NCBI GenBank assembly: GCA_041599395.1
Contig: JBFHWR010000001.1
Span: forward strand, 1-40,314
Direction: 5' to 3'
Length of the DNA stretch: 40,314 nt
Origin: Gemmatimonadales bacterium
GTDB taxonomy: Bacteria; Gemmatimonadota; Gemmatimonadetes; Gemmatimonadales; GWC2-71-9
Below, piece by piece: positions 26,608-40,314 of the stretch (within the stretch, counting starts at the first letter, position 1; each line of letters starts with the position of its first letter). The position numbers and the translations under genes are program-made. The notes under the pieces were generated by a model. The model had not been told where the DNA came from. It ran no database searches and was given only the letters and a program-made list of their open reading frames with translations.

Positions 26608-26766
26608 AATCCTTATATCTACCTTACCTGTCGGGCGGGGATCCGCGAGGATCAAATGTGCCCCCGAAGGGAACATTTCCACCCGGCATTATCTGTAACA
26701 TCAATCACAACAAATACTTAGTTCGCCGATCCGGTTGATTGCCCCCGGATGAGGCGGGGCGGATTA

Positions 26767-27291: not shown

Positions 27292-27312
27292 CTTACCCTA
27301 CCCTTCCTTCGA

Positions 27313-27347
27313 GAGTCGGGAGTCGGGAGCCGGCGGCGGGAGCGGCG
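27313..27347 (+). repeat. Heptamer tract GAGTCGG GAGTCGG GAGCCGG CGGCGGG AGCGGCG
   Basis: Read directly, in the aroC-aroK intergenic region. Confidence 0.5.
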
Positions 27348-27389
27348 ATCCAGCAACTAACCGGGAACCACTATGATCGATCAATCTCA

Positions 27390-27445
27390 AATCGCCGATC
27401 GCCGATCGCCAATCGCCAATCGCTCACCTACCACGTATCACCTAA
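27390..27445 (-). repeat. Eight in-register heptamers AATCGCC GATCGCC GATCGCC AATCGCC AATCGCT CACCTAC CACGTAT CACCTAA (+ strand)
   Basis: Counted base by base. The last unit overlaps the aroC stop codon (27442-27444). Confidence 0.8.
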
Positions 27446-28617
27446 TCTTTCGTAATCCGCCCGACATACGCATCATAATTCGCTCGCATCTCACGCAGCG
27501 AGTCACCACCGAACTTCTCCGCCATCGCGTCGGCGAGCACCAGCGCCGTCATCGCCTCGGCGATCACACCCATGGCGGGCACCGCGGTGACGTCGGATCG
27601 CTCCGACTGCGCCTTGGCCGCTTCACCCGTCGCCACGTCCACCGTGCCGAGCGGACGACGAAGCGTCGAGATCGGCTTCATCGCGACACGAAGGACGAGC
27701 GGTTCCCCGTTGGTCATGCCACCCTCCAGCCCGCCGGCCCGGTTTGTTTCACGCTCGAAGCGTCCGGTCGCGTCCGACGCGCCGGGCGCGATGACGTCGT
27801 GGGTATGTGAACCCGGCCGGCGGGCGGCCTCAAAACCGAGGCCGACCTCGATTCCTTTGACGGCGGGAATCGACATGATGGCGCGTGCGAGCCGACCGTC
27901 GAGCTTCCGATCCCATGAGACGTGTGACCCCAACCCGACAACCAATCCGCGGGCCACCACCTCCACTATTCCGCCCAGTGTGTCGCGTTGTTTCTTCGCC
28001 GTGTCGATTGCCGCCACCATCGCCTCACTCGCGGCGTCATCGAGACAGCGGACGGGTGAGCGGTCTGCTGTTTCGTTGATCGGTTCGGGAAGCTCTCGTT
28101 GCGGCGTCGCACGAACCGCTCCCAATTCCACGACGTGGCTCCCGATCTCGACGCCAAACTCAGCGAGCAGGCGACGGCACACGGCACCACACGCGACGCG
28201 TGCAACGGTTTCCCGCGCACTCGCGCGCTCCAGCACATCCCGCGCGTCAGTCCGGCCATACTTGAGGAGTCCGGTGAGATCGGCATGACCCGGCCTGGGA
28301 CGAGTGACGCGCCGCCGCCGCTTGGTCCCCGCCACATCCGGTTCGGCGGCCATCACGTCCGCCCAGTTTTCCCAATCGCGGTTCCGGATCAGCAGTGCAA
28401 TGGGTGATCCGATGGTTTCTCCCGCCCGCACACCAGAGAGAAACTCGACCGCGTCTGACTCGATCTTCATGCGTGCGCCTCGGCCGTATCCCGCCTGGCG
28501 ACGCGTGAGCTGGCAGTCGACGTCATCGGATACCAGCCGCAGGCCGGCCGGTATCCCCTCGAGAATCCCGACCAGTGCTTTACCGTGCGATTCGCCTGCG
28601 GTCGTGAATCGGATCAT
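27442..28617 (-). CDS. aroC: Chorismate synthase
   Basis: MIRFTTAGESHGKALVGILEGIPAGL N-terminus, 391 aa. Confidence 0.95.
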   Translation of the reverse strand: MIRFTTAGESHGKALVGILEGIPAGLRLVSDDVDCQLTRRQAGYGRGARMKIESDAVEFLSGVRAGETIGSPIALLIRNRDWENWADVMAAEPDVAGTKRRRRVTRPRPGHADLTGLLKYGRTDARDVLERASARETVARVACGAVCRRLLAEFGVEIGSHVVELGAVRATPQRELPEPINETADRSPVRCLDDAASEAMVAAIDTAKKQRDTLGGIVEVVARGLVVGLGSHVSWDRKLDGRLARAIMSIPAVKGIEVGLGFEAARRPGSHTHDVIAPGASDATGRFERETNRAGGLEGGMTNGEPLVLRVAMKPISTLRRPLGTVDVATGEAAKAQSERSDVTAVPAMGVIAEAMTALVLADAMAEKFGGDSLREMRANYDAYVGRITKD

Positions 28618-28676
28618 CTAGACACCACAACGTCCAACGTTCAACGCGGAACCTTCAGTGCTCAGGGAAAACTCCG

Positions 28677-28725
28677 CATTCAAACATCCAACATCCAGCG
28701 TCCAGCGTCCAGCGTCCCACCTAAG
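28677..28725 (-). repeat. Seven heptamers CATTCAA ACATCCA ACATCCA GCGTCCA GCGTCCA GCGTCCC ACCTAAG (+ strand)
   Basis: Counted base by base. Directly abuts the terminator at 28726. Confidence 0.8.
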
Positions 28726-28751
28726 AAAAAGGCCCGACGAGAAGCCGGGCC
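28726..28751 (-). terminator. Intrinsic terminator of the secretin / giant-lipoprotein operon
   Basis: On the minus strand: GGCCCG-9 nt-CGGGCC followed by TTTTT (plus-strand A run at 28726-28730). It lies 29 nt after the stop at 28781. Confidence 0.7.
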
Positions 28752-28780
28752 TTGCAAGTACCACCGGATTCACCTTCGCG

Positions 28781-31700
28781 TCACCGTCGTCGGATATTGA
28801 CGCTCCGCCGACTCCCCATGCCGCTCACTGGGAAGGGGTTGTCGACTTCCGGCAGCTGCACCATCACGACGCCCTCCGCAGTCACACCGATGATGAGCTG
28901 GTCGCCCGACGGGAGCCGCGCCACGCGGAGCGGCCCAATGATCGGATTCTTGACCGGAACGGTGGCGACTCGGCTGAAGAAGAACGTGTCGAACACTTCG
29001 ATGACCGGATTATCCGACGCCATGAAGACCACACGGTTGGTCGAATCCGCCGTGCCGCCGAACGTGCCCGGCGTGCCGCCAATTCCGGCTTCGAACGCGT
29101 GGTCGAAGTTCAAGTCCATACCCGAGTTCTGGCCGCCGACGGCGATCAGGCCCTTGAGACGGAGCGGCTCGTTCAGAACGTACACCGAGTCGGTCGTGCG
29201 AATCAGGTTCGTCAGCCCGTTGAAGTTGATCCCAATCGAGTTGACGCGCGTGGCGGTGTTGCTGATGAAGTCCCGCACCCGAATGCCGGGGGTCACGCCA
29301 AAGTCCCGCTTCTCCGGGCCATCCGGCAACGAGAATGTGGAATCTCCGACAGTAATTTCCCCGCTGCACACCCTGGTGCTGACTGAATCGCTTCCATTGT
29401 ATCCGACAGCCCGAGCGAAGCCTTCGCCGATGACACCGCCCTCGCCGATCAGCGCGTGGGTGAAGTTCCCGGAGTTCCGGACAAACGTCGTGTCGCGGAA
29501 CACGAGCTGCTCGATGTCCACCATGACACCGCAGGAGGCCGCGAGGATGGTTTCCTGTCCGGCAATCGGACCACGATCCACAATCACTTGCAGCGTGTCG
29601 AACGACGGGTCAGGCGGCACCACCGCTTGCTCCCAGAAGAAGTGCGATTCCGAGAACGCAGGTGGACCCGCGGTCAACGATGGGCCGATGTTTTCCCAAC
29701 GGATGGAGCCGCGTTTGGGGAAATCGCCCTGATCGATCGTCGGGGTCGTCGAGTAGACGGCGTAGATCGAATCGGGGTGACACGTCGTCAAGCCCGCAGT
29801 CCGGCACGTCGTACCGAGGTACTGTGGACGGTCTGAGAAATCGTACTCAGTAATCTTGATTTGGATGACGCCGGTTTCTTCGTCGCGCTCCGTCGTCACC
29901 GCTTGGATGATGAAATTGGGCAGTGCATGTCGATTGATTTCCCGACGCGCAGCCACATCCACAATCGAGAGATCCGTGCCGCCGGAGTTTGCGACGACGA
30001 CGCGGTCGTCATTTGCACCGAGGGTGTCGGCCGGCCAGAGCGCAATGCCCCAGGGACGCGACCCAACCGGCACCGGGCTCCCGAACGAGATGGACGCGAC
30101 ATCGAACACCTCGAGCTGTTCGAGGCTGACGTTGGTCATGTAGACTTCATTCAGGTTCCGGTTATAGATCGCATCGGCGATGGTCCCACCCATTGGCAGG
30201 GGTACCGTTCGCCCGGCGACGATCGTCACCGTATCCGCGGCGCCACTGCTCACCGGCAGACCGGTGCGAGAGACCTCGCCGCGGTTCCCAACCGAGTCGA
30301 TTCCAAACGCGGTCACCACGACCTGCAAGGGGAACGTCGTGACCGTATCGAGACCGAGCGCGAACGTCCGGCTGACGTCGGTACTGGTTCCGGCGAAATC
30401 AGCGGAATCCCCGGCCAGCGTGGCGGCGCCGGTCAAATCGGTCACCAGGAACCCGACCCGGGTTATTCCACCCACGTCGATCGCCCGAACGATGATCGAG
30501 TCATCGACTTCTGCGCGGAGATCGACCACGTCTGTGACCAGCGGCGGGACGGTGTCCCCGACTCCTGCGCTGGCGACCAACTCAACGGTGATCGATGAGC
30601 CGGTGCCGGGGTTTCCGACCGAGTCAGTTCCAAACGGGTGGATGTTGAAGAATCCGAGCGGCGTCGCTCCCGGGACCGAGAGCACAAACGTCAGCGTCGT
30701 GTCAGCCACCTGCGGATCGGTCGTCGGAAGTACGACGGTATCACCTGCGACGAGCACGCCGGACGTGAAGTAGCCGAGCTTGCCGATCCCCGTGGCCGCT
30801 TGGCCGCGAATCGTAATCGTCATGTCTTTCCCGGGCGCTGCGACCGAGCTATCTCCGGGAGCGATGATGTTGAGCGCGGGACCGACGACCATCTCGATGC
30901 GTACGCTGTCTTTCGCTGAGTTCCCCGAGGAATCCCGTGCGCTCACCACGATGTAGACGGGCTCCGCCGTCTGCTCGTCGGGATCGGAGAGGAGATCTCG
31001 GGTTATGGTCGTATCCGGCGTCGCCTGAGTGAGCGTCACGCCTTTCGGCCGAAGGCGTGTGACGACGGTGTCCGTGCCGAGGTTTGGATCCCCGCGATGC
31101 GCGACACCGACCAAGGACAGATTGGTTACGCCGCGGTTGTCCTGGACCTGCACGGCCACACGAACGCTGTCGCCCACCCGCACCAGCGTGCCGGGGGATG
31201 GTTGCACAAAGGCAATCGTTGGTGGCACGCCATCCGTGAGCGTCACGCGGCTGGGGGCGCCAAAGAAGCGCTTGCCGATCCCATCGACCGCAAACGGAAT
31301 GACCGTAATGGTCCCGAGGTCTGCGGTCGTGGGCACCGGCAGGCTCAGCATGGCGAGCACGCTATCGTCGGGCGCCCCGGCAAACTCCACCGAATCGGCG
31401 CCGCTGACAACACCGGTTGCGATGAAGCCGGCATACTCCACGTTGTTGGGGGAGCGCGCAGCCACGTCGATCGTCAGCGGCGTCCCAACCGGCTGTTCCG
31501 ACCCGTCTTCCGGCTCTACCACGCGGACGAACGGTCCGCGTACCACCTGAATCGTGGACGTGATGACGGACGAGTTGCCGCCGACGTCCGTGATCGTCGC
31601 TTCGAGGGTCACCCGCTCCGGTGTCGAGTCCGACACATCGGGCAGCAAGTAGCGTTGGAATGTCGTATCGGTCGCGCCGTTGAGTCGAGCCGTTTTCGGC

Positions 31701-32650
31701 ACGAATCGCGTTATCGTGACCGCCGTACCCAGCGCGCTGTCGCCACGAACCACGATACCGCGCAGTCGCACGGAATCGACACCCGTCAAATCCTGGGCCC
31801 GGAACGTCACAAGCACGCTGTCGCCTGCCACGACCATCGAATCCACTGGCGGCGAAACGAAGACGCCTGTGGGTCCGAGCAGATCGATGATGCCGGCGTT
31901 GATGGCCGGCCCGTCTCCCCGGTTGCCGGCCGCGTCGACGGCGAACGTTCCGAGTTGATAGGTGCCCGGATTCAACGTGTCGGGAATCGCAACGCGCAGC
32001 GTATCGGTCACGCCGAACTGCGGCGTTGCATAGGAAACGGAATCCGCACTGATCGTGATGGGCTGGCCCAACGCGTCCAACAAGAAGAGCCGCGCACCGA
32101 CTTTGGTCACCCCCGATGCATCGTTACTCCGCACGATGACTGTCGCGGTGTCGCCCGCGCCGAAGGCGGTTCCCGGTGCCGGAGCCAGTATGGTTTGTTG
32201 CGGCGGGACCGGATCGAACACGGCGATGGTCGTCGTTGCCGAGTTGGCGTTCCCGGCGCCGTCCGTCACGTTCAGACCGACGGTGATCGGCCCACCCGCT
32301 GCGCCGGCTGCAATCGTGATGTCGAAGGTCTTGGTGAAGGACAAGACGGGCGTGGTGAACGTGGTGTCGAACGAAAAAACGACCGCACCGGTGACGACGA
32401 CGCTGACCGTTTTCAACCCGACGTTGTCCGTCGTGCTGACCGTGAACTGGAGCCCCTGATTGATGTCGACGGTATCGACCGCGCTCTGGATGCTTGCCGT
32501 CGGCGGGATATCGTCCGGGACGACTCCTGAGGGGAGGCGCTGCTCGTTGCAGGACACCATCGCAGCCGCGCACGCGCCGGCCAGTACCCACCGGCCGAAC
32601 CGCGCCAAGCGGTTCAATCTCACCGTTGTCTTGTGATTCATTGTGATCAA
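28781..32650 (-). CDS. 1289-aa surface lipoprotein: seven tandem Ig-like (~105-115 aa) repeats followed by a ~475-aa beta-propeller-like region
   Basis: Lipobox AAAMVS|C (Cys34). Repeats delimited by recurring ...D..GN....(V)..P(P) ends at aa ~47-812. The C-terminus has YVTN-like blades (EVYMTN, RVVVANSGGTDLSIVDV, SVYVLN, VVFMASDNPVIEVFD). Starts 13 nt after the secretin stop (TTG 32650 with GAGGA 7 nt upstream; ATG 32641 is the alternative). Confidence 0.85.
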   Translation of the reverse strand: MITMNHKTTVRLNRLARFGRWVLAGACAAAMVSCNEQRLPSGVVPDDIPPTASIQSAVDTVDINQGLQFTVSTTDNVGLKTVSVVVTGAVVFSFDTTFTTPVLSFTKTFDITIAAGAAGGPITVGLNVTDGAGNANSATTTIAVFDPVPPQQTILAPAPGTAFGAGDTATVIVRSNDASGVTKVGARLFLLDALGQPITISADSVSYATPQFGVTDTLRVAIPDTLNPGTYQLGTFAVDAAGNRGDGPAINAGIIDLLGPTGVFVSPPVDSMVVAGDSVLVTFRAQDLTGVDSVRLRGIVVRGDSALGTAVTITRFVPKTARLNGATDTTFQRYLLPDVSDSTPERVTLEATITDVGGNSSVITSTIQVVRGPFVRVVEPEDGSEQPVGTPLTIDVAARSPNNVEYAGFIATGVVSGADSVEFAGAPDDSVLAMLSLPVPTTADLGTITVIPFAVDGIGKRFFGAPSRVTLTDGVPPTIAFVQPSPGTLVRVGDSVRVAVQVQDNRGVTNLSLVGVAHRGDPNLGTDTVVTRLRPKGVTLTQATPDTTITRDLLSDPDEQTAEPVYIVVSARDSSGNSAKDSVRIEMVVGPALNIIAPGDSSVAAPGKDMTITIRGQAATGIGKLGYFTSGVLVAGDTVVLPTTDPQVADTTLTFVLSVPGATPLGFFNIHPFGTDSVGNPGTGSSITVELVASAGVGDTVPPLVTDVVDLRAEVDDSIIVRAIDVGGITRVGFLVTDLTGAATLAGDSADFAGTSTDVSRTFALGLDTVTTFPLQVVVTAFGIDSVGNRGEVSRTGLPVSSGAADTVTIVAGRTVPLPMGGTIADAIYNRNLNEVYMTNVSLEQLEVFDVASISFGSPVPVGSRPWGIALWPADTLGANDDRVVVANSGGTDLSIVDVAARREINRHALPNFIIQAVTTERDEETGVIQIKITEYDFSDRPQYLGTTCRTAGLTTCHPDSIYAVYSTTPTIDQGDFPKRGSIRWENIGPSLTAGPPAFSESHFFWEQAVVPPDPSFDTLQVIVDRGPIAGQETILAASCGVMVDIEQLVFRDTTFVRNSGNFTHALIGEGGVIGEGFARAVGYNGSDSVSTRVCSGEITVGDSTFSLPDGPEKRDFGVTPGIRVRDFISNTATRVNSIGINFNGLTNLIRTTDSVYVLNEPLRLKGLIAVGGQNSGMDLNFDHAFEAGIGGTPGTFGGTADSTNRVVFMASDNPVIEVFDTFFFSRVATVPVKNPIIGPLRVARLPSGDQLIIGVTAEGVVMVQLPEVDNPFPVSGMGSRRSVNIRRR

Positions 32651-32663
32651 ACCGCGTTCCTCG

Positions 32664-34481
32664 TTACGGACTTCGGGTCGAGGAGGCCTCGCTGTCGAGA
32701 ATGTGCGGCGTCACGAGGATGAGGAGATCCTGGCGCTCCTCCCGCCTCCTCGTGTTACCGAACATGCCTCCGATGATCGGCAGGTCCACAAGAAACGGAA
32801 TTCCGCTCTTGGCGACCGTGACTTCCGTCACCGTCAGCCCACCAACCACGGCGGTTTGACCGTCGTTGACCAACAACTGGCTTTGCGCTTCCTGCGTCTG
32901 GAACGTAAACCCGACGTCCACCGGCGCCTCGGTGACCGACGAGTTTTCAACCCGCACGTCCAAGAGAACCTGGCGGCTCTGGGTCACGTGCGGCGTGACT
33001 CGCAGCAGTAATCCGGTTTCGACGATGTTCGTAACGGCTCGGGGCGCTCCGGTGCCCTGCGCGCCGCCCTGTGCGCTCGCATCGATCTGACGAATAGGCG
33101 TTTTCTCACCGACCAGGATGTACGCTTCGGTGTTATCGGCGGTCGTCGTGAGGGGCTCCGCTTGCAGGTCCGCCAGCTCGACGCGCTGCAATGCGTCGAT
33201 AAACGTCGTCAGGTTGAAGTTCCCAATGGCCGTGGAAAAGATCAGGTTGAGCGCGGGCGACAGCACCTGGGATTCCGCATTCGCAATCGCTGCCAGCGCG
33301 TTCCCCCCGAGGTCGATGATGTTCACGTCCTCTTCGAAGAAATCGGTGGACCGTAGCTCGTCCGGAACGCCGTCGCCATCGGTGTCCACCGCAATGGCCG
33401 ACGAGGGATCCGGTCGCTGAACCAGTTTGTTGAAGAATTGATTGGACGTCCCCAAATCGTACTTGACGCCCAACTCTTCAATGTCGGTGCGATCGACCTT
33501 GATCAACTTCGCTTGGATCGACACCTGGGGAGTCGGAATGTCGAGCTGCGCGACGAACGCGGCGGCGTCGGCTACCTGGCTCTGCGTGTCGGTGATGATC
33601 AGGCTGTTCGTACGCGTCTCGGCCACCACGTTGCCACGCGGTGAGACAACGGTCTGCAGGACCGGAACCAGATTGGCCGCGACCGCATAGTTGACCGCGA
33701 CGGTGGTCGTTGTGAGCGGTTCCAGTGAATCGCGAGCCGCGATGGTTTCACGGCTGTCGATTTGAATCAGTCCAATCGGGTCTTCAGTCGCGGACAGCCC
33801 ATACGCGTTGAGGATTCGCTGGAACGCCATGTCCCACGGCTGATCTTGAATCGTGGCATTGACGGACACCTCGACATCGGGCCCGACAATGATGGACTTG
33901 CCGCTGAATGCCGCGAACGCCGCGGCGACGTCCCGGATGTTGGCGGAGTCGTACGTGACGGTGATGCTGGGCAATTGCGATTGCTGCACCGGCGCCGGGG
34001 CAGCCGTGGGTACGGGGTCGGGCCGCGGAACTTCGCCGACGGGGCGTGCGCTCTGCGCGGTTGACGACCACGCTTGAAAGACCTGGTCCGAGCCAAACGT
34101 GATCCGGATGGTCTCGTCCACATACTCGAGTTCGTAATCTTTGAGCGCGTCCAACTCGAGCACGATCCGCACCACGTCGGAGCGAAACTGGGCCGAGCGA
34201 ACGTTCAACACTCCACCCCGGTTGGTACGGTCATAGCGGAGGGCGGGTACCCTGAGCTTCGCGCCCAAAACGTCGACCACGAGCCGCGGCGGGTTTTCCA
34301 GCGTGAAATCTTGTACCGTCACGCTCCCGCGTACATCGATCACGACGTGGGTGCGTCCCGGTCCGGGCAGCACACTGACCGCGGTGACCTCGCCGGGCGC
34401 TGTCGGATCCGGGCCCGCCACTGACGGGGGCGCCGTCACCATGGTTCCGGCGGCGGCTGCCAACACGAGCGACCACCTCAT
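32664..34481 (-). CDS. pilQ: PilQ-type secretin with N-terminal AMIN domain
   Basis: Signal peptide. AMIN-like THVVIDVRGSVTVQDFTLENPPRLVVDVLGA. N0/N1-like modules. C-terminal secretin core (LLRVTPHVT...VVGGL...GIPFLVDLPIIGGMFG...LLILVTPHIL). AGGAGG upstream of ATG 34481. Confidence 0.9.
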   Translation of the reverse strand: MRWSLVLAAAAGTMVTAPPSVAGPDPTAPGEVTAVSVLPGPGRTHVVIDVRGSVTVQDFTLENPPRLVVDVLGAKLRVPALRYDRTNRGGVLNVRSAQFRSDVVRIVLELDALKDYELEYVDETIRITFGSDQVFQAWSSTAQSARPVGEVPRPDPVPTAAPAPVQQSQLPSITVTYDSANIRDVAAAFAAFSGKSIIVGPDVEVSVNATIQDQPWDMAFQRILNAYGLSATEDPIGLIQIDSRETIAARDSLEPLTTTTVAVNYAVAANLVPVLQTVVSPRGNVVAETRTNSLIITDTQSQVADAAAFVAQLDIPTPQVSIQAKLIKVDRTDIEELGVKYDLGTSNQFFNKLVQRPDPSSAIAVDTDGDGVPDELRSTDFFEEDVNIIDLGGNALAAIANAESQVLSPALNLIFSTAIGNFNLTTFIDALQRVELADLQAEPLTTTADNTEAYILVGEKTPIRQIDASAQGGAQGTGAPRAVTNIVETGLLLRVTPHVTQSRQVLLDVRVENSSVTEAPVDVGFTFQTQEAQSQLLVNDGQTAVVGGLTVTEVTVAKSGIPFLVDLPIIGGMFGNTRRREERQDLLILVTPHILDSEASSTRSP

Positions 34482-34559
34482 ACCGTTCCTCCTACCTGCG
34501 CCTCGTTATGCGCCATATGTGCCTACAGATCAAGGAGATACGAGTGTTGCGCGGTTCCA

Positions 34560-34588
34560 ACAGTATGCCTCTCTCCTGGGTTTGTCAA
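34560..34588 (-). promoter_or_regulatory. Candidate sigma70-type promoter for the secretin operon (TTGACA-17 nt-TACTGT)
   Basis: The reverse complement of 34583-34588 is TTGACA, and of 34560-34565 is TACTGT, with a 17-nt spacer. It lies about 80 nt upstream of ATG 34481. Confidence 0.35.
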
Positions 34589-34774
34589 GCTGTGTTTTCC
34601 CGACTCAACTGGTACCAAGTCTCAGGTCGACAGTGACTTACACTGGTCGCGTTCCTCGCCGTTGCTCACTCAACGTGGCGGCGGCGACAGCGAAGCGAAC
34701 GAAGGGAGCCTCGTGACCCACACATTAAGCGCGGGACTGCCCGGAGCGATGTGATCTTGGTCATGAACGAGATG

Positions 34775-34815
34775 AAAAAAACCTGCCGCGCTCCTCGAGT
34801 GGGGGTCGCGGCAGG
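34775..34815 (-). terminator. Intrinsic terminator ending the minor-pilin operon
   Basis: On the minus strand: CCTGCCGCG-16 nt-CGCGGCAGG followed by TTTTTTT (plus-strand A7 at 34775-34781). It lies 32 nt after the stop at 34848. Confidence 0.75.
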
Positions 34816-34847
34816 CTTGGCGGCCGGCATCCGCGAGGCGAGACTCG

Positions 34848-36086
34848 TCAATACATCCGGGTGTGGCGCACTCCGGGAACTGCGCGGATCACCATCGCCT
34901 GCATCCAGGCGGTCTCGACTTCACACTGATTGTACTTCACCCCAAGATGCTTGCCGTCCAGCTTGTTTCGGCAGGTTCCGGCCGCGAGTTCCGCCGGCGT
35001 ACATGTCAGGCCGGTCACGACGATACCCTTCGCGTGCAAGTGCGCATCGTACACTTCAATCTGTTTGCCCGTCAGGATAACGCCCTTCCAGTCGAGCTTA
35101 CCGTCGAGCAGGAGGATGGGACCGTCCACCATCAAGAGTCCCCACCCCTTGATGTCGCTCGTAATCGTGAGCGTGTCGCGGATCAGGATCAGCGGCCAAA
35201 CGCGGCTGTCTTTCTTCCCCTTGGGGAACTGGCTCTTGAAGTCAATCGTTGCCAGATCGGGGTCGAGCGCCGAGACGGGAACTGTCCCGTTGATCACGGC
35301 ATTGCGCAGCTTGGCCCACGGGACATCGAGACTATCGACCAGTTCCTGGTAGTCGTCGTACGAGTCGTCGATCTCGTCAAAATCGTCCTCGCCCTTGATG
35401 TGCGCCTTGATGCGAATATCGTCCTCACCAAACGGCACGGCCATCGGCGGCACGCCGGAATCGCCGCACTTGCCCACCTTCCCGCCGTCGACGTGGAAGT
35501 GGTCGCTGTCCTCGACTACGTCGATCCCGTTAGGCGCGGCGAACGCACCCATGGGGTTGAACGGCGCCCTGAACCGGCCAAACGTGCGGACGGTGCGCTC
35601 GGCGTTGGGACGATTGCCCCGCTTATCCGGCACGACCGCGGCGGCCTCGAACAGCCATGTGTCTCCCCGCGTCGATTCCGTCACCTTGCGCGGCGTGACC
35701 ACGACGCTGATCGGACCATTGGTGAATGTCTTGGGCTCGAGCTCCGTGCCGAGTTGATCGACGATCGCATCAGGGTCGACGGCGTCGTCGTCGGCATCCG
35801 GGTCCACCGGCTCGCCGGGATCCTCCTCCGAGGTTATCTTCGAGGTCTCGATCTCGAATTCGTCGGCGACGCCCCACGTGGCCATGTACTCCGCCGTCGC
35901 CTGCTCAGCCGCGTACAGGCCGCGAGCCTCCATGTCGAAATTGTCGGCGATGACCCGGTCACTCGACGCGATGTAGTGGACCGTGAGTCCCGTTACGGCG
36001 ACGCTCGCCAACGCGACCACGACCCAGAACATGGCGATCCCCCGTTGATCCTTCCGCCATCTATGCCGCTGTTCCCACTCCCGCAT
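34848..36086 (-). CDS. PilX/GspK-like minor (pseudo)pilin, 412 aa
   Basis: N-terminus QRGIAMFWVVVALASVAVTGLTVHY...YAAEQATAEYM resembles the PilX N-terminal domain (no Glu at +5). GAGGGAG upstream of ATG 36086. Last gene of the pilin operon. Confidence 0.7.
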   Translation of the reverse strand: MREWEQRHRWRKDQRGIAMFWVVVALASVAVTGLTVHYIASSDRVIADNFDMEARGLYAAEQATAEYMATWGVADEFEIETSKITSEEDPGEPVDPDADDDAVDPDAIVDQLGTELEPKTFTNGPISVVVTPRKVTESTRGDTWLFEAAAVVPDKRGNRPNAERTVRTFGRFRAPFNPMGAFAAPNGIDVVEDSDHFHVDGGKVGKCGDSGVPPMAVPFGEDDIRIKAHIKGEDDFDEIDDSYDDYQELVDSLDVPWAKLRNAVINGTVPVSALDPDLATIDFKSQFPKGKKDSRVWPLILIRDTLTITSDIKGWGLLMVDGPILLLDGKLDWKGVILTGKQIEVYDAHLHAKGIVVTGLTCTPAELAAGTCRNKLDGKHLGVKYNQCEVETAWMQAMVIRAVPGVRHTRMY

Positions 36087-36122
36087 TGTTGTGCTCCCTC
36101 ACTCAGCTACGAGTGTTCAAAT

Positions 36123-37112
36123 TCACCGTGAGTTCTGCAATCGCACCCATGGATGCACGGCGAGCGTATCCACGCGCGCTCGTCGCTCATCCTCTAGCTT
36201 CGCCGGCAGTCGAAGCTGCACCGCACGGATGCGATCCAAGTCACCTGCCGGCACGCTGGCCACCTCGGCCCCGTTGTCCAGACGGTAGCGGAATCCGGCG
36301 CTCGCCCCAAAGGGCCACGCCAATTTCTGGGCGCCCTCTCCGGTTCCACGGTAAAGAATGACGCCGGGTCTCCCGCTCTCCGGTGCGTAGTAGTAGCTCA
36401 CGTAGTGATACGTATACAGCAACGCGCCGTCGCTGGGCATCGAGTCCACGAACGTGCTGATCTTGTCGAACTGGCCGTAGATGTTCTTTTCGACGAAGTT
36501 GCTGTCCGCGCCGCCGAGACACGCGCTGTACGCGGTGGTGTCGCTCGACTGCACGTCGTCCCAATTGGCAACGTCATATAGCTCCCAGGTGAGACCCCCG
36601 TACGACAGTCCAAACCCCTCTGGTGTCGGCGCACCCAGTGCCTGCGGGAGCGGCTCCATGTAGATCGCCGCCGTATCTTCGAATTCTGGCATCGGCGGCG
36701 GAGGGTCGCCTTTCTTTTCCTTTTTCTTCTTGTCCTTGCGCCACTTCTTCCACTTGTCCTTCTTCTTCTTCATCTTCTTTTCGTCTTGACGCTGGATGTC
36801 GCCGCACACGACCCCCCACGAAAGCGGCAGCCGAATCGTCAACGAGTCCGCACCCGCATGCGCTACCGCCCCTCGAGGAAGGTCACGCAACTCGGTCGCA
36901 ATAAAATTGCTCGCGGCGCGCATCTGCCCCAGCTGCATGGCGCCCGCCCGCATCCGATCGGAGAACCGGCTCTGCGACACGACCACGGTCACTACCGCTC
37001 CCACGATCAGCGTCGTGAGGCCCATGGCCATGATCAGCTCGAGCAACGTAAACCCGCGTTCACGGGCTTGGCGTCGCTGTCTGTGGCGGGCATCGTTCAT
37101 CAACGGCTTCAT
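36123..37112 (-). CDS. PilW/GspJ-like minor (pseudo)pilin with Lys-rich insertion, 329 aa
   Basis: Prepilin motif RERG|FTLLELIMAMGLTTLIVGAV (Glu+5). ATGA overlap with the upstream gene. Internal EKKMKKKKDKWKKWRKDKKKKEKKGDPPPP. Confidence 0.75.
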   Translation of the reverse strand: MKPLMNDARHRQRRQARERGFTLLELIMAMGLTTLIVGAVVTVVVSQSRFSDRMRAGAMQLGQMRAASNFIATELRDLPRGAVAHAGADSLTIRLPLSWGVVCGDIQRQDEKKMKKKKDKWKKWRKDKKKKEKKGDPPPPMPEFEDTAAIYMEPLPQALGAPTPEGFGLSYGGLTWELYDVANWDDVQSSDTTAYSACLGGADSNFVEKNIYGQFDKISTFVDSMPSDGALLYTYHYVSYYYAPESGRPGVILYRGTGEGAQKLAWPFGASAGFRYRLDNGAEVASVPAGDLDRIRAVQLRLPAKLEDERRARVDTLAVHPWVRLQNSR

Positions 37113-37522
37113 TTGTAATCGTCCCTCTGAATCGCAACAGTGAACCGCTGCAGCTCACGCCCTCGGGGATCCACCACCGAGACTGTGACGTCCTTGAGGT
37201 CATTTGCGTCGGTTCGCTCCTGGATACTCGTGACCACTTTCAACTGAAACCGCCCCGCATCGGCGTCTTTCTCGGTCGCGCCCGGCGATGCGTCGTCGTA
37301 TCCCTTGGCCATTATTTCGTCAATCGCTTCTCTGGCCATGACGGTGGCCACCGAAATCGCCTTGGAGCGACGCATCTCACGCGCCCCCATTGACGCCGTC
37401 GCCGCCATTCCAATCAGCACGGTGCCGAGCAGCGCCGTCGCAACCATGACTTCAATCAGTGTAAACCCACCGCGCCCCCTAAGGGTCGCGGCAATCGGAC
37501 GTTGCGGACGTTGCATCATCAT
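37109..37522 (-). CDS. PilV/GspI-like minor (pseudo)pilin, 137 aa
   Basis: Prepilin motif GRGG|FTLIEVMVATALLG (Glu+5). ATG 37522 overlaps the upstream stop (ATGA). The track ORF extension to 37633 overlaps the upstream gene. Confidence 0.75.
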   Translation of the reverse strand: MMMQRPQRPIAATLRGRGGFTLIEVMVATALLGTVLIGMAATASMGAREMRRSKAISVATVMAREAIDEIMAKGYDDASPGATEKDADAGRFQLKVVTSIQERTDANDLKDVTVSVVDPRGRELQRFTVAIQRDDYK

Positions 37523-38016
37523 TTGCTTACCCTCATTTCCGTCCTGCCCAACAGACCTATCTCTAAGAAATATTCCTTCTCGTGTGCGCGGACGTAGATA
37601 CGCGTCGGGACGCCGGACGAACAGTTCATGCACAGGCCCCGACGGCTGAAGACCAAGCTGTCGCCGTCGACGTCGAGATCGAGCCGTTCGAGCACGTAGT
37701 CGGATTTCGGACCGAAGGCTCGGCGGAACGCTACAGTTCCTGCGGTATCGCGCACAACGACGTCGCGCTTCGCTTCATCCACCGCCAATGTCATCTGCGA
37801 CCCCGCGCGAATTGCGTAGGTCCGCGCGACCTGCACCGACCAGGCCAGCGCCTGCGTGGCCTGCCGGGCACGCTGTTGCCGAGCGTAATCCCGCATGCCG
37901 ACGAATCCGATGCTCAGCAGAAGGCCGGTCACCGACATAACGACCACCAACTCGATCACGGTAAACCCCTGCGGGACCTTGCGGTGCTTCGGGTTCCTAA
38001 ACGACTTCATCGGCAT
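37519..38016 (-). CDS. FimT/GspH-like minor (pseudo)pilin, 165 aa
   Basis: Prepilin motif VPQG|FTVIELVVVMSVTGLLL (Glu+5). First gene after the -24/-12 promoter. Confidence 0.8.
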   Translation of the reverse strand: MPMKSFRNPKHRKVPQGFTVIELVVVMSVTGLLLSIGFVGMRDYARQQRARQATQALAWSVQVARTYAIRAGSQMTLAVDEAKRDVVVRDTAGTVAFRRAFGPKSDYVLERLDLDVDGDSLVFSRRGLCMNCSSGVPTRIYVRAHEKEYFLEIGLLGRTEMRVSK

Positions 38017-38078
38017 TTCATCTCCAAGCCAACTACATTATCGGCCACGATTCCTAATGCGTGACCGGCCAGAGAAGA

Positions 38079-38093
38079 GCAACCGCCGTGCCC
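38079..38093 (-). promoter_or_regulatory. Sigma54 (-24/-12) promoter of the minor-pilin operon
   Basis: The minus strand reads GGGCACG-GCGG-TTGC, versus consensus TGGCACG-N4-TTGC, with correct GG-to-GC spacing. It lies about 60 nt upstream of ATG 38016 and directly downstream of a sigma54 activator gene. Confidence 0.6.
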
Positions 38094-38323
38094 GGCGCCC
38101 TTGCCGTGATGGGGATCACGTCACATCGCTCTGGTACCGCCGCGTGACGGCTTTTCACCGTGGTGAGCGTTGCAAAGTGCCTGCATAGACGACGTTCTGC
38201 GGCGCCGGCGTCCCCGTTTTGCCTCCGCGATCGGGAATGCGCCGGTTACCCGCTTCCACGAAGTGGCTCAGTGCGAGGCGATTTGCATGAACAGTTCTGC
38301 ACATCGTGCACCGCGTTGCAGTC

Positions 38324-39676
38324 TCACGCCGCCAGGTGCTTGAGCTTGTAATACAACGTGCGCAAGCTCACACCGAGGATCCTGGCTGCTTCGACACGAT
38401 TTCCCGCAGTGGCGTCCAATGCGATCTCGATTGCGATCCGTTCTGCTTCGTCGAGGGCGGCTTTCAGGGTCCGTGGGCGCCGCTCCGAGAGCGTCCGTGT
38501 TCGCTCGCTTGGGCTCTGCAGGCGTCGCTCAGATCCGAATGCCTCGGCTCGTATGACGCCATCGGGTGAGAGCACCGCGACTCGTTCCAACGCATTCTCC
38601 AACTCGCGAACGTTGCCCGGCCACGACCGTTCTTTGATGGCTTCAAACGCTCCCGGCGCCAGGGTGAGCTTACGGCCCGCACGGGCCGACTCGCGCTCGA
38701 GCAGTCTCGCCACCAGGCCGTCGAGATCGCCCGGTCGCTCGCGGAGCGGCGTGACGTGGATGCGCACGACATTCAGACGGTAGAAGAGATCTTCGCGAAA
38801 GGCGTTGGAACTGACGGCTGATTCCAGATCGCGCGCCGTTGCGGAGATGAACCGAACATCGACTTTACGCACTCGGGCATCGCCGACGCGCCGGATTTCA
38901 CCTTCCTGCAAGACCCGCAACAACTTGACCTGCAACGGAAGGGGCAGATCGCCGATTTCATCGAGCAGGAGCGTGCCGCCTGCGGCGCTCTCGATCAGCC
39001 CGGTCTTGTTTGTCGTCGCGCCGGTGAACGCCCCCCGCACATGACCGAACAGTTCGGACTCCAGGAGGTTCTCCGGAATCGCGCCGCAATTGACGGCAAT
39101 GAACGGCGCAGCCCTCCTGGGACTCATGCGATGAATCGCTCGCGCAACGACCTCCTTGCCGGTGCCACTCTCGCCCGTGATCAGGACCGTCGTGTCGTGC
39201 GGCGCCACCAGCGTCGCGAGTTCCATCACCTTGCGCATAGACGGAGAGTCCGCGACGATATCCAGTTCCTTCGCGCGCGTGAGCTCGGCCTCGAGGCTGG
39301 CGACGCGGCCCTTGAGGAGTTCCCGCTCTTCGGCCTTGCGGAGCGTTAACAGGACCTCGTCCCGTCGAAACGGCTTTGGCAAGTAGTCGTAGGCCCCTTC
39401 TTGCATCGCCTCGAGCGCCGCGTCTTCACCACCGTAGGCGCTCATCATGATGACGAGGGCGCTCCCCCCGCGCCGCGCATATTCGCGTAGAAATTCCAGC
39501 CCGTTCAGGTCCGGCATGCGAACATCGCACAACACGATGTCGAACGTGTCGGCCAGCGCCCGCTCCAAACCGTTCTTCGGGTTGCCTTCCGTAACGACCT
39601 CATGGCCTCCGTCCTGAAGAATGAGGCTCAGCGAATCACGCAGCCCCAGGTCATCGTCCACGACCAGAATCTTCAT
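38324..39676 (-). CDS. NtrC-family sigma54-dependent response regulator (PilR/AtoC-like)
   Basis: Canonical receiver (VVDDD...IVLCDVRMPD...YLPKPF). AAA+ module with GESGTGKE and ESELFGHVRGAFTGA. HTH AARILGVSLRTLYYKLK. ATGA overlap with the kinase gene. Confidence 0.9.
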   Translation of the reverse strand: MKILVVDDDLGLRDSLSLILQDGGHEVVTEGNPKNGLERALADTFDIVLCDVRMPDLNGLEFLREYARRGGSALVIMMSAYGGEDAALEAMQEGAYDYLPKPFRRDEVLLTLRKAEERELLKGRVASLEAELTRAKELDIVADSPSMRKVMELATLVAPHDTTVLITGESGTGKEVVARAIHRMSPRRAAPFIAVNCGAIPENLLESELFGHVRGAFTGATTNKTGLIESAAGGTLLLDEIGDLPLPLQVKLLRVLQEGEIRRVGDARVRKVDVRFISATARDLESAVSSNAFREDLFYRLNVVRIHVTPLRERPGDLDGLVARLLERESARAGRKLTLAPGAFEAIKERSWPGNVRELENALERVAVLSPDGVIRAEAFGSERRLQSPSERTRTLSERRPRTLKAALDEAERIAIEIALDATAGNRVEAARILGVSLRTLYYKLKHLAA

Positions 39677-40314
39677 GCCGCCTCCGGCAAAAAAATCTTG
39701 AACGCCGCACCACCTTCGCGGGCTTCATCAACCCACACGACTCCACCAAGCTCGTCTACGGTGCTTTGCACGATGGCGAGACCCAGGCCCGTTCCCTTCC
39801 CAGGTTCTTTTGTCGTGACAAACGGATCGAAGATGCGCTCACGCTCCGATTCGGGGACTCCGTCGCCCGAGTCCGCTACCCACAGCATGACACCCTCCGT
39901 CCCGTCGGCGACTTCCGGACGCCACGGCCGACGCCCGAGGTGCAGTTTCGGACCAATAAAGCGACGGGTGTCCGTCCGCCGTCCATCCGCACCCGGTCGC
40001 GTGCGATACCGTTGCCGTGACGCGCCAACCAATATCGAACCGTCGGGCGCTGCATCAGTCGCGTTCAGTATCAGATTGACCATGACCTGCTCAAGCGCAT
40101 GCACCTTGCCGCGAATCAACGGAAGCGCCGACTCCACCTCGACGCGAAGATCCATCTGCTTCAATGCACCCTGGCCGGTGAGGAGATCCACCACCTTGCG
40201 CAGGAGTCGCCCAACGTCGATGTCTTCAACGCCCCCCGATTCCGGACGGGCATATTCCAACAACCCTCGCACGATTTGATCGATGCGCTTCGTTTCTCGA
40301 TTCAACGCCGCAAC
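39673..40314 (-). CDS. Sensor histidine kinase, N-terminus beyond window edge
   Basis: The frame stays open to base 40314 (the track M at 40305 is a TTG codon). HATPase_c motifs are present: NLILNATDA (N box), DSGDGV (G1), GTGLGLAIV (G2). Confidence 0.85.
   Translation of the reverse strand, partial: VAALNRETKRIDQIVRGLLEYARPESGGVEDIDVGRLLRKVVDLLTGQGALKQMDLRVEVESALPLIRGKVHALEQVMVNLILNATDAAPDGSILVGASRQRYRTRPGADGRRTDTRRFIGPKLHLGRRPWRPEVADGTEGVMLWVADSGDGVPESERERIFDPFVTTKEPGKGTGLGLAIVQSTVDELGGVVWVDEAREGGAAFKIFLPEAA

Follow-up and report, generated by a model that had tools for sequence, protein, structure and literature searches.

The region at positions 28781-40314 of the DNA analyzed here probably belongs to a canonical type IVa pilus (T4aP) supercluster, of whose contiguous genes it forms the downstream third, because the genes for PilMNOP, PilA, PilBTC and PilSR continue upstream in a sister contig and in relatives. 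The analyzed stretch of 40,314 nt, hereafter the window, comprises one contig of a Gemmatimonadales MAG in full and terminates within a sensor kinase gene. We are highly confident of the overall picture when it is taken jointly as an architecture, comprising the supercluster, a clade-specific cassette inserted between pilP and pilQ, and the regulatory mechanism proposed for that cassette. An exceptionally large lipoprotein is encoded after pilQ, and the odds are slightly in favor of a functional tie between this protein and the pilus.

Gene organization at the contig end

The initial annotation placed all genes on the minus strand with prepilin motifs, overlaps, gaps and terminators, and these were confirmed by the coordinates and a Pfam profile search. 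The features were as follows.

39673..40314, minus strand: 3' part of a sensor kinase gene, 213 codons, HAMP-HisKA-HATPase type (Pfam HATPase_c), cut by the contig end
38324..39676, minus strand: NtrC-type response regulator/bacterial enhancer-binding protein, 450 aa (Pfam Response_reg, Sigma54_activat at 2e-72, AAA_lid_14, HTH_8)
38284..38320, minus strand: four TGCA half-sites, candidate enhancer (UAS) for the regulator, read from the sequence just past the regulator stop codon
38078..38093, minus strand: -24/-12 sigma-54 promoter-like element GGGCACGGCGGTTGCT (motif match GGCACGGCGGTTGCT at 38078-38092), some 60 nt ahead of the first pilin gene
37519..38016, minus strand: FimT/GspH-like minor pilin, 165 aa, G|FTVIE (Pfam N_methyl and weak GspH)
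37109..37522, minus strand: GspI/PilV-like minor pilin, 137 aa, G|FTLIE (Pfam N_methyl)
36123..37112, minus strand: minor pilin in the PilW/GspJ position, 329 aa, G|FTLLE (Pfam N_methyl)
34848..36086, minus strand: PilX-like fourth member, 412 aa, hydrophobic N-terminus without Glu+5, separated by a 36-nt gap from the 329-aa gene
34774..34818, minus strand: intrinsic terminator ending the minor-pilin operon, 12-bp GC-rich stem followed by U7 (-25.6 kcal/mol, z = -2.6)
34482..34590, minus strand: pilQ promoter-like element and conserved leader (TTGACA at 34588-34583, 17 nt, TACTGT at 34565-34560)
32664..34481, minus strand: PilQ, type IVa pilus secretin, 605 aa (Pfam AMIN, N0, Secretin_N, Secretin)
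28781..32650, minus strand: giant lipoprotein, 1289 aa, last gene of the pilQ operon, with a lipobox, about 7 Ig-like domains and a C-terminal YVTN/YncE-type beta-propeller with insertions
28729..28753, minus strand: intrinsic terminator ending the pilQ-giant operon, found by a terminator scan (10 pairs, 7 GC, then a T-run) and also visible in the sequence

The tblastn search detected no major pilin, PilB/PilT ATPase, PilC or PilMNOP across the entire 40.3-kb window, so that the absence of these genes from positions 28781-40314, as first described, was correct. The module looked incomplete because the contig edge had cut it. A sister contig (L083), which shares 99.8% identity with the window over the overlap at 35451-40314, continues directly past position 40314 with the genes for PilP, PilO, PilN and PilM, a first PilX/W/V minor-pilin set (378-, 281- and 116-aa proteins) and a pair of PilA-type pilins. 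Another contig, L001, encodes a response regulator identical to that of the window and begins at the PilP C-terminus. Two further contigs of the window's clade, L090 and L091 (77% kinase identity), supplied the genes for a ComEA-like protein, PilB, PilT, PilC, PilS and PilR. With pilA, pilMNOP, pilS/pilR, pilC, pilT and pilB thus provided by the sister contig and same-clade relatives, the description of the module as having a "non-standard composition" no longer applied, and the secretin was not the "orphan" it had been called.

The gene order of the supercluster was reconstructed from the relatives and the sister contig; sister assemblies, rather than the contig of the window itself, supply the part upstream. 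The order is comEA-like, pilB, pilT, pilC, pilS, pilR, methyltransferase, GT2, GT39/PMT_2 and TPR genes, then pilA, pilA, pilV1, pilW1, pilX1, pilM, pilN, pilO and pilP, then the cassette (HK, RR, fimT2, pilV2, pilW2, pilX2), followed by pilQ, the giant lipoprotein gene, aroC, aroK and topA. The complete genome CP070666.1 has an equal gene order minus the cassette, and its pilP overlaps pilQ. The 5.7-kb cassette between pilP and pilQ was found in the window's clade only. Elsewhere in the Gemmatimonadota, pilP directly adjoins pilQ, and the homologous HK-RR-fimT module, where present, lies upstream of pilV-pilW-pilX-pilM.

PilQ orthologues were located immediately downstream of pilMNOP in about 60 loci. 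The best NCBIfam match of the window's PilQ was IV_pilus_PilQ, at 224 bits below the cut-off of 284. The initial annotation had proposed that the secretin would be redundant or unrelated if the flanking genome carried a standard pilMNOPQ and a second pilQ. The pilMNOP part was essentially borne out beyond 40314, but no second pilQ was found in the clade's cluster. The window's pilQ is the cognate pilQ of the cluster, parted from pilP by the clade-specific insertion.

A cassette with a second minor-pilin set

The cassette encodes a kinase with a HAMP domain and an NtrC-type regulator, followed by a predicted sigma-54 promoter and a second, divergent set of minor pilins, and the earlier proposal of a sigma-54/NtrC-type cassette ahead of a four-gene minor-pilin operon was supported. 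The full-length kinase is a 380-aa protein with HAMP, HisKA and HATPase_c domains (P0034), identical on L083 and L001, and its gene overlaps the regulator gene by 4 nt. The regulator has the GAFTGA motif, and its NCBIfam ntrC-like match was under the equivalog cut-off.

The search for GGCAC-N5-TTGCW gave GGCACGGCGGTTGCT as the sole match in the window, with 0.2 expected by chance and at least one match in 19 of 100 shuffles; such a sequence match by itself would be a weak indication. The promoter was instead called because of where it lies and because relatives conserve it. The element is identical in L001 and L083, takes the form CGGCATATCGGTTGCT in the 77% relatives, and occurs as variants with a degenerate -12 in other clades. 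TGCA-rich clusters were also present at the equivalent position in L017, L022, L033, L037 and L038, and the element and the clusters recur between the response regulator gene and the first pilin gene across several clades. We infer that the TGCA cluster is a candidate UAS of the NtrC-type regulator. An rpoN gene was not seen in the sequences examined.

The genes for the 165-, 137- and 329-aa pilins are joined by 4-nt overlaps, and the gene calls on the identical contigs concur. The best NCBIfam match of the 165-aa pilin was gspH (4e-10, under the cut-off). The 137-aa pilin matched the type II secretion system protein XpsI (1.4e-8), gspI (1.5e-8) and PilV (5.5e-6), all under cut-off, and showed 30% identity to the phylum-wide PilV-like proteins. 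The similarity of the 329-aa pilin to the phylum-wide PilW-like proteins was confined to the N-terminus, and this protein contains a Lys-rich low-complexity insert (CTT repeat at 36744-36787). The 412-aa protein (PilX2) had no match in Pfam or NCBIfam. Its alignment by hhalign to the Gemmatimonadota PilX-like family nevertheless gave a probability of 84% (E 7.5e-6, C-terminal 93 columns), and by this profile comparison PilX2 carries a C-terminal module common to that family. The first set is orthologous to the phylum-wide minor-pilin set (E 4e-17, 2e-48 and 1e-52); for the second set of the window no orthology to it was detectable outside the N-termini, apart from the PilX2 module.

In the mechanism that we propose, the HAMP kinase would phosphorylate the NtrC-type regulator, which would bind the TGCA-rich site beside its own gene and activate the -24/-12 promoter. 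The operon would then yield an alternative four-protein priming/tip complex using the shared PilA, PilBTC and PilMNOPQ machine. This would give the cell a signal-dependent switch of pilus tip properties, like that of bacteria in which several sets of minor pilins occur.

pilQ and the giant lipoprotein gene

The stem and U-tract of the terminator past the 412-aa gene are kept in L082, an 86% relative. The promoter-like element and leader of pilQ, together about 110 nt, are almost 100% identical to those of L082, and the remaining spacer is far less conserved. The -10 hexamer fits the consensus at 3 of 6 positions and was thus not called by a consensus scan. Because the cassette finishes in a terminator, pilQ has, judging from these sequences, gained its own conserved promoter-like element and leader in the window's clade.

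The gap between pilQ and the giant lipoprotein gene is 13 nt in the window (22 nt with NCBI's ATG). The order pilQ, giant gene, aroC, aroK, topA was found in about 70 of the 80 fetched loci with enough flank, and also in Longimicrobium terrae and a JGI contig. Homologues of the giant protein thus do co-occur with the secretin from Gemmatimonadales to Longimicrobium. A median of 8 nt separates pilQ from the giant gene, and the two lie a few bases apart or overlap at nearly every locus; the giant-to-aroC gap has a median of 124 nt (70-383 nt) and contains the terminator in the window. The small gap on one side, and the large gap with a terminator on the other, place the giant gene in the predicted pilQ transcription unit, unlike the housekeeping genes. 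The proposal that both genes form one unit was accordingly upheld at the level of sequence, where tight spacing and terminator position are the two features that argue for it. Synteny is a weak argument for the function of the giant protein, since the unrelated housekeeping genes aroC, aroK, topA, trmFO, xerC and hslVU are equally conserved in order from Gemmatimonadales to Longimicrobium.

Pfam matches of the giant lipoprotein were Big_7 and DUF4625. AF2 models (pLDDT 85 and 84) predicted Ig-like domains and a YVTN/YncE-type propeller of about 480 aa with large insertions; the last 13-14 residues were disordered in both models. The profile search against the PDB gave 1l0q at 1.7e-15, and the Foldseek top 50 were WD40, YVTN and YncE propellers. 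Homologues range from 800 to 1970 aa (median 820), as the stalk of Ig-like domains varies in number from about 3 to about 12, with a conserved core of three Ig domains and the beta-propeller. The lipobox was present in 22 of 22 aligned homologues with a nearly invariant Cys. The Longimicrobium homologue is named 'YncE family protein' by NCBI.

Possible roles of the giant lipoprotein

If the giant lipoprotein serves the pilus, it would be a lineage-specific accessory in the envelope, working at the outer-membrane end of the T4aP machine. The most likely version of such an accessory, which we put forward tentatively, is a partner of PilQ that resembles an adhesin or receptor, is anchored in the outer membrane and is probably exposed at the surface; the one ground for surface exposure is the varying stalk length. 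The protein might instead have nothing to do with pili, being an envelope protein (adhesin, S-layer-like protein or enzyme scaffold) that was fixed between pilQ and aroC in the ancestor of the phylum and kept by frozen gene order. Most genes in the syntenic run pilQ-giant-aroC-aroK-topA-trmFO-xerC-hslVU are indeed functionally unrelated, and, among proteins of solved structure, the closest by sequence is an archaeal S-layer YVTN/PKD protein; we consider this unlikely, however, as the few bases to pilQ stand against the far wider, terminator-containing spacer to aroC. A periplasmic, outer-membrane-anchored partner in secretin assembly or gating, either pilotin-like or a ring/plug like TsaP or SlkA/SlkB, appears distinctly unlikely. 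Its gene is close enough to pilQ for co-translation, the cluster showed no gene for a small TPR pilotin, and the discovery of new secretin-interacting proteins continues (PMC13392014). Known pilotins are, however, small TPR or beta-sandwich proteins, in contrast to the 800-1970 aa found here, and a stalk of so variable a number of Ig domains would fit poorly in a periplasm of fixed width.

The two roles originally suggested for the giant protein fared worse. One made it the substrate of a dedicated T2SS-like exporter formed by the four pseudopilins and the secretin. More broadly, it could be cargo pushed through the secretin by the pilus machine, or by the second set and PilQ, and remain lipid-anchored on the surface. 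The T2SS brings PulA (pullulanase) or SslE to the cell surface, where they are lipid-anchored. The lipoprotein gene adjoins the secretin gene in every locus examined, the variable Ig stalk suits a surface-displayed protein, and the second-set pilins score highest on T2SS pseudopilin models (XpsI, gspI and gspH), though under cut-off. In every tested respect, however, the system is T4aP, with PilA-type pilins, the PilT retraction ATPase, PilMNOP and an AMIN-bearing PilQ; it has no GspC, GspL, GspM or GspG, and position +2 after the lipobox Cys shows no consistent acidic residue. As the giant gene occurs in clades without the second minor-pilin set, that set cannot be its dedicated exporter. We therefore regard the cargo role as very unlikely, although secretin-dependent surface display, as something separate from a dedicated exporter, may occur. 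The least probable role is that of a Gemmatimonadota equivalent of PilY1/PilC, docking through its C-terminal propeller or tail on the minor-pilin complex, priming assembly and acting as the tip adhesin, with its gene relocated beside pilQ. A PilY1-like gene is absent from every minor-pilin cluster seen (about 90 loci), the protein has the PilY1-like layout, and its disordered end matches the C-terminal tail that forms the plug motif of PilC (preprint 10.64898/2026.09.18.752573). This tail is not conserved across the family, however, and placement in the PilY1 family failed by Pfam (no PF05567 match), by structure (PDB profile search without a PilY1 chain; Foldseek top 50 generic and without 3HX6), by signal-peptide type and by gene position, which is never within a minor-pilin operon. 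All homologues have a lipoprotein (SPII) signal rather than SPI, which would tether the protein to a membrane.

Comparison with known pilus systems

A literature search turned up neither experiments nor publications on the pili of Gemmatimonadota. Like the T4aP clusters of Pseudomonas, Myxococcus and Neisseria, the supercluster encodes PilA-type pilins, PilB, PilT, PilC, PilS (6TM_PilS)/PilR, PilMNOP and an AMIN-bearing PilQ, with aroK near pilQ; the proteobacterial order is pilQ-aroK-aroB. Unlike those clusters, nearly everything here is gathered in a single supercluster of about 30 kb, the pilMNOPQ genes of the window's clade are split between pilP and pilQ by the cassette, the extra large lipoprotein gene ends the operon after pilQ, and there is no PilY1 gene.

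In P. aeruginosa, fimS-algR lies upstream of fimU-pilVWXY1Y2E, and the cassette likewise has a two-component system directly upstream of a four-gene minor-pilin operon. Myxococcus xanthus has three differentially regulated minor-pilin sets (PMC7541494, PMC9109919). As in these multi-set systems, two sets here share one common machine, but the regulator is an NtrC-type sigma-54 activator rather than of the LytTR or phosphorelay type, the set is without PilY1, and the cassette lies inside pilMNOPQ. An NtrC-family activator with a -24/-12 promoter-like element ahead of a pilin gene also resembles the PilS-PilR control of pilA. The cassette is nevertheless a second system with a HAMP-type kinase and a minor-pilin operon as its predicted target, and the true PilS (6TM_PilS-PAS)/PilR pair is encoded elsewhere in the cluster.

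The giant lipoprotein is similar to PilY1/PilC in its large size, variable N-terminal part, conserved C-terminal beta-propeller and disordered C-terminal tail, but differs in the YVTN/YncE type of its propeller, the lipoprotein-type signal peptide and a gene located after pilQ and not among the minor pilins. The propeller resembles the Methanosarcina S-layer protein 1L0Q and E. coli YncE (3VGZ) in sequence profile and fold, and is joined to Ig/PKD-like domains as in 1L0Q. Unlike both, the giant protein has large insertions in its propeller, an N-terminal lipid anchor and tight operon coupling to a pilus secretin. The interest of this locus lies in an extra, apparently separately regulated set of pilus-tip genes ahead of the pore gene and a large lipoprotein gene after it.

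Gene content of the pilus region

The window spans the whole of a 40,314-bp contig from a Gemmatimonadales metagenome-assembled genome. The genes that the initial annotation had listed on the minus strand from 40314 to 28781 were confirmed by their translations and by Pfam and NCBIfam searches, as follows.

Genes read from 40314 to 28781 of the window
Up to 40314 (-): sensor kinase, 3' part, cut at the contig end
(-): NtrC-type response regulator, with sigma-54 interaction domain and GAFTGA loop
(-): three prepilin-type genes (G|FTVIE, G|FTLIE, G|FTLLE), chained via 4-nt overlaps
(-): 412-aa gene, with hydrophobic N-terminus and without Glu5
32664-34481 (-): AMIN-bearing secretin, PilQ being the best model
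28781-32650 (-): 1289-aa giant protein, 13 nt beyond the secretin gene

The proposed regulatory signals were also recovered. The -24/-12 element GGGCACGGCGGTTGCT at 38078-38093 was the sole such match in the window, a strong hairpin followed by a U7 tract lay 3' of the 412-aa gene, and a second terminator was present 3' of the giant gene. The Rfam search of window 26000-40314 gave no match, and the G+C content (approximately 62%) was even along the whole length of the window. Heptamers repeated in three short tandem arrays (TGGACGC x3.4, GGATGTT x2 and GACGTTG x2.7 on the minus strand) occupied 28628-28717, between the terminator of the giant gene and aroC. Elsewhere in the window, a diguanylate cyclase was encoded at 6186-7913 (-) with the domains Fer4, Fe_hyd_lg_C, FeS and GGDEF, its N-terminal sensor being composed of a 4Fe-4S ferredoxin and an Fe-hydrogenase large-subunit-like domain. 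It was adjoined by the gene for an HD_5/MASE9 protein at 4082-5410.

The secretin as part of a type IVa pilus machine

The secretin had been described as an orphan in a filament module of non-standard composition, and tblastn indeed detected no PilM, PilN, PilO or PilP gene in the window. A 24-kb NCBI contig of a sister assembly (L083), with 99.8% identity to window 35451-40314, ran 10 kb beyond position 40314. Just past this position, it encoded in the direction away from the kinase PilP (a 141-aa lipoprotein), PilO, PilN and PilM, followed by proteins of 378, 281 and 116 aa, two PilA-type pilins (139 and 135 aa), a TPR protein and a GT39/PMT_2 glycosyltransferase. A Logan contig (L001) encoding a response regulator identical to that of the window opened with 46 codons matching the PilP C-terminus. 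As the window ends inside the kinase gene and the sister contig continues from there, the secretin is not an orphan but a member of a complete pilus cluster, and the apparent non-standard composition was largely an artefact of the contig edge.

The same gene order was seen in relatives with 77% kinase identity, which carried further upstream the genes for GT2, a methyltransferase, PilR, a 6TM-PilS kinase, PilC, PilT, PilB and a ComEA-like protein. Proteins with the domains MshEN+T2SSE (569 aa), T2SSE (378 aa) and T2SSF (397 aa), corresponding to PilB, PilT and PilC, were found on the relatives' loci L090, L091 and L092; these components were thus read from the 77% relatives and one more distant genome, not from the window's own assembly. 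The secretin itself had the PilQ domain set in Pfam, namely AMIN (3e-15), N0, Secretin_N (1e-13) and Secretin (6e-38). Its top NCBIfam match was PilQ at 224 bits, under the 284-bit cut-off, and the GspD model scored lower. The locus encodes a type IVa pilus (T4aP) machine, with the secretin, alignment complex, major pilin, ATPases and platform all found. A type II secretion system (T2SS) was rejected, as PilMNOP, PilA-type pilins, PilT and the AMIN-bearing PilQ were present instead of GspC, GspL, GspM, the major pseudopilin GspG and a GspD without AMIN, and a T2SS would have no retraction ATPase.

In three lineages, the stretch separating pilR from the pilA pair encoded a methyltransferase, a GT2, a GT39/PMT_2 (GT-C type) glycosyltransferase and an approximately 615-aa TPR protein (L090, 8548-13824; L092, 8617-13869; L083, 1-3374). 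This block may be a pilin glycosylation module. The TPR protein encoded ahead of pilA (614 aa) could alternatively be a pilotin, but as it is preceded by the GT39/GT2/methyltransferase block, it may equally serve pilin glycosylation. A ComEA-like (HHH_3) gene was located directly upstream of pilB (L090, 561-1175; L092, 1-37), a hint at a role of the pilus in taking up DNA.

A regulatory cassette between pilP and pilQ

The PilMNOP genes were directly upstream of the kinase on L083, L084-L086, L090 and L091, and abutted pilQ in other clades. The kinase, the regulator and a second minor-pilin set stood between pilP and pilQ only in the clade of the window (the window, L001 and L082-L086, plus L090 and L091, which are further stretches of two of these contigs). 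In the complete genome CP070666.1, pilP overlapped pilQ with no kinase/regulator cassette between them. A homologous module of HAMP kinase, NtrC-type regulator and FimT was located in other clades upstream of pilV-pilW-pilX-pilM, and the simplest reading of the cassette is that such a module was duplicated or transferred into the pilP-pilQ junction.

Such an insertion would require pilQ to have its own expression signals. A perfect TTGACA, a 17-nt spacer and TACTGT were found within approximately 110 nt before the pilQ start. In an 86% relative, this segment was almost 100% identical to that of the window through to the ATG, while the remaining spacer had diverged. The terminator stem in the spacer was also kept in that relative, and no relic of pilP was detected in the 366-nt spacer preceding pilQ.

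The cassette kinase (HAMP-HisKA-HATPase, 380 aa) and its regulator constitute a second system beside the PilS-PilR pair of the same cluster. The regulator matched Sigma54_activat in Pfam (2e-72) and contained GAFTGA in its translation. In several clades, clusters of TGCA half-sites occurred immediately after the regulator stop codon and before the first pilin gene, and a -24/-12 element was located 40-70 nt ahead of the first pilin start codon. By relaxed scoring, the -12 part was degenerate outside the clade of the window, and the strict pattern TGGCAC-N5-TTGCW gave no match across the loci. Among the clades the -12 part read TTGC, TTGT, TTGA or CTGT with the -24 part GGCAC/GGCAT retained, as seen 100-300 nt past the regulator gene in L033, L037, L038, L042, L043, L017 and L022. 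In one locus (L074), the gene next to the regulator encoded a PilA-type major pilin, not FimT.

These features suggest a conventional circuit for the alternative minor-pilin operon, in which a signal would act through the cassette kinase to phosphorylate the regulator, and the phosphorylated regulator would bind the TGCA-rich site predicted from the sequence and activate the sigma-54 promoter. No rpoN gene was present on the 40-kb contig. Use of sigma-54 by this genome is nevertheless shown by a second sigma-54 activator, of 531 aa and without a receiver domain, encoded at window 15760-17355 (-). In Pseudomonas, the fimS-algR pair is located upstream of the minor-pilin operon, and the position of the two-component pair here is similar. 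Separate control of several minor-pilin sets, as would apply here, is also known from bacteria such as Myxococcus (PMC7541494, PMC9109919).

Two minor-pilin sets

The class III signals were present in the translations of all three prepilin-type genes, and Pfam N_methyl was above cut-off for each of them. The 412-aa protein, a candidate fourth member of PilX/GspK type, had no match in Pfam or NCBIfam. When compared by hhalign with the PilX-like family of the phylum, of which one member has a weak PilX_N match, it aligned with a probability of 84% (E 7.5e-6) over only the C-terminal 93 columns. The 116-, 281- and 378-aa proteins on L083 were orthologues of the phylum-wide PilV-, PilW- and PilX-like genes preceding pilM (E values of 4e-17, 2e-48 and 1e-52, respectively). 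Judged from these comparisons, the four minor-pilin genes of the window are a second, strongly divergent set, whose kinship to the first was recognisable only at the N-termini, in the PilV-like protein (30%) and in a module at the C-terminus of the PilX-like one. The globular part of the PilW-like minor pilin (gene at 36123-37112) carried a Lys-rich low-complexity insert, EKKMKKKKDKWKKWRKDKKKKEKKGDPPPP, at window 36744-36787, encoded by an imperfect CTT/AAG repeat.

In other lineages, a second PilV/W/X-like set was found in tandem upstream of pilM (L017, 3561-5181; L061, 2831-4928; L069, 2789-5108; also L018 and L040). Having more than one minor-pilin set is therefore common in the phylum, and the second set of the window is unusual only in its position.

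The lipoprotein gene following pilQ

A pattern scan with one genome per species gave 424 stretches encoding a relative of the giant protein, and the best 80 of the 424 were fetched. All of these 80 loci belonged to Gemmatimonadota by name or content, as did the nearest relatives of the window's protein. The order secretin, giant gene, aroC, aroK, topA was seen in essentially every one of these 80 with enough flank, and pilM-pilN-pilO-pilP stood directly ahead of the secretin in approximately 60. The arrangement of PilMNOP, PilQ, giant gene, aroC, aroK and topA also held on a distant JGI contig and in Longimicrobium terrae, where it was preceded by genes for a response regulator, a pilin, FimT, PilV, PilW and PilX and followed by trmFO, xerC and hslV. 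One locus labelled Candidatus Kuenenia stuttgartiensis (L070, CALQGY020000034.1) contained the full Gemmatimonadota pilMNOPQ-giant-aroC-aroK-topA locus and is probably a mis-binned contig.

Between the stop codon of pilQ and the earliest start that the giant ORF could have, the median distance over 72 loci was 8 nt, and the two genes often overlapped. The gap to aroC was 70-383 nt and in the window included the terminator. The tight gap on one side and the wide one on the other indicate that the giant gene closes the pilQ transcription unit in the loci examined. The pairing of secretin and giant gene proposed from the sequence of the window was thereby borne out. The aroC and aroK genes directly after the pilus operon (26767-28617 in the window) were in the same place in approximately 70 loci. 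In Proteobacteria the order is pilMNOPQ-aroK-aroB, which the present order resembles. By this comparison, the giant gene appears to have been inserted where pilQ and the aro genes had met in an older arrangement.

A lipoprotein signal was found at the N-terminus of all 22 aligned homologues, with a nearly invariant Cys. The AlphaFold2 model of residues 470-1289 (pLDDT 85, pTM 0.69) comprised three Ig-like sandwiches and a large all-beta propeller and ended in 14 disordered residues; this C-terminal tail was not conserved across the family. The propeller alone was modelled with pLDDT 84 and pTM 0.85. Further Ig-like domains (Pfam Big_7, DUF4625) occupied the N-terminal 470 residues. The median length in the family was 820 aa, corresponding to the lipobox, three Ig domains and the propeller; with lengths ranging from 800 to 1970 aa, the protein of the window is a long variant. 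The family profile matched 1L0Q, a YVTN-propeller/PKD S-layer protein, in the PDB (1.7e-15), and Foldseek with the propeller retrieved generic propellers with seven or eight blades, among them 1L0Q and 3vgz (E. coli YncE; TM 0.67 on target). By sequence and fold similarity, the C-terminal domain belongs to the YVTN/YncE beta-propeller family. Foldseek matches of the 820-residue multi-domain model to multi-Ig and tandem-WD proteins were discarded as meaningless (TM < 0.2). A phmmer search of 1.84 billion representative proteins gave 614 clusters at E <= 0.001, 64 of them at E <= 1e-30.

Possible roles of the giant protein

The initial annotation had offered a PilY1-like protein or the cargo of a dedicated T2SS-like exporter. 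The general layout of the giant protein is like that of PilY1, and no PilY1 gene was seen in the examined clusters, as would suit an analogue taking its place. The propeller type is contrary to this reading, since there was no PF05567 match in Pfam at E <= 0.01 and no PilY1 chain at E <= 1 in the PDB profile search, and 3HX6 was absent from the Foldseek top 50. The signal peptide and gene position also disagree: all homologues have a lipobox with the nearly invariant Cys, not an SPI signal peptide, and the gene is always next after pilQ rather than in or beside the minor-pilin operon. Display of the giant protein through the secretin as a lipoprotein cargo has a precedent in PulA and SslE. All the features tested, however, make the system a T4aP, and the giant gene is found in clades that have no second pilin set, so that a dedicated exporter built from that set did not hold. 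We regard it as unlikely that the protein is a new obligatory T4aP component, which could take the place of PilY1 as non-pilin partner of the minor pilins, or else a lipoprotein delivered by the pilus machine through PilQ to the surface.

A periplasmic secretin partner or pilotin would agree with the lipobox, but a pilotin is a small outer-membrane lipoprotein of TPR or small beta fold, whereas the family has 800-1970 aa of Ig-like domains and propeller. A stalk with anywhere from three to twelve Ig domains would also fit poorly in a periplasm whose width is fixed. Conservation of the core suggests that its partner is conserved too, and the variation in stalk-domain number that part of the protein faces the outside. 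Taken together, these traits favour an outer-membrane-anchored, probably surface-exposed accessory of adhesin- or receptor-like character that would work with PilQ. The absence of any functional link to the pilus was retained as an explanation because the unrelated housekeeping genes downstream are equally syntenic, and we lean only slightly towards the giant protein being tied to the pilus at all.

No publication on Gemmatimonadota pili was found in the literature search. In this clade alone, pilMNOPQ is split by a sigma-54 two-component cassette that comes with an alternative minor-pilin set. The split is a variant of known systems, and represents a rare break in an otherwise very stable unit by a self-contained regulatory cassette and an alternative tip set. 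The PilQ operon-partner lipoproteins, in the Gemmatimonadota loci examined, are likewise a variant of known systems, and form an uncharacterised family of approximately 600 clusters at 50% identity, tied to PilQ in loci from Gemmatimonadales to Longimicrobium. If the giant protein is a pilus component, it would show how the functions of the T4aP tip or secretin can be solved without PilY1; if it is delivered through PilQ, a T4aP would be taking on work like that of a T2SS.
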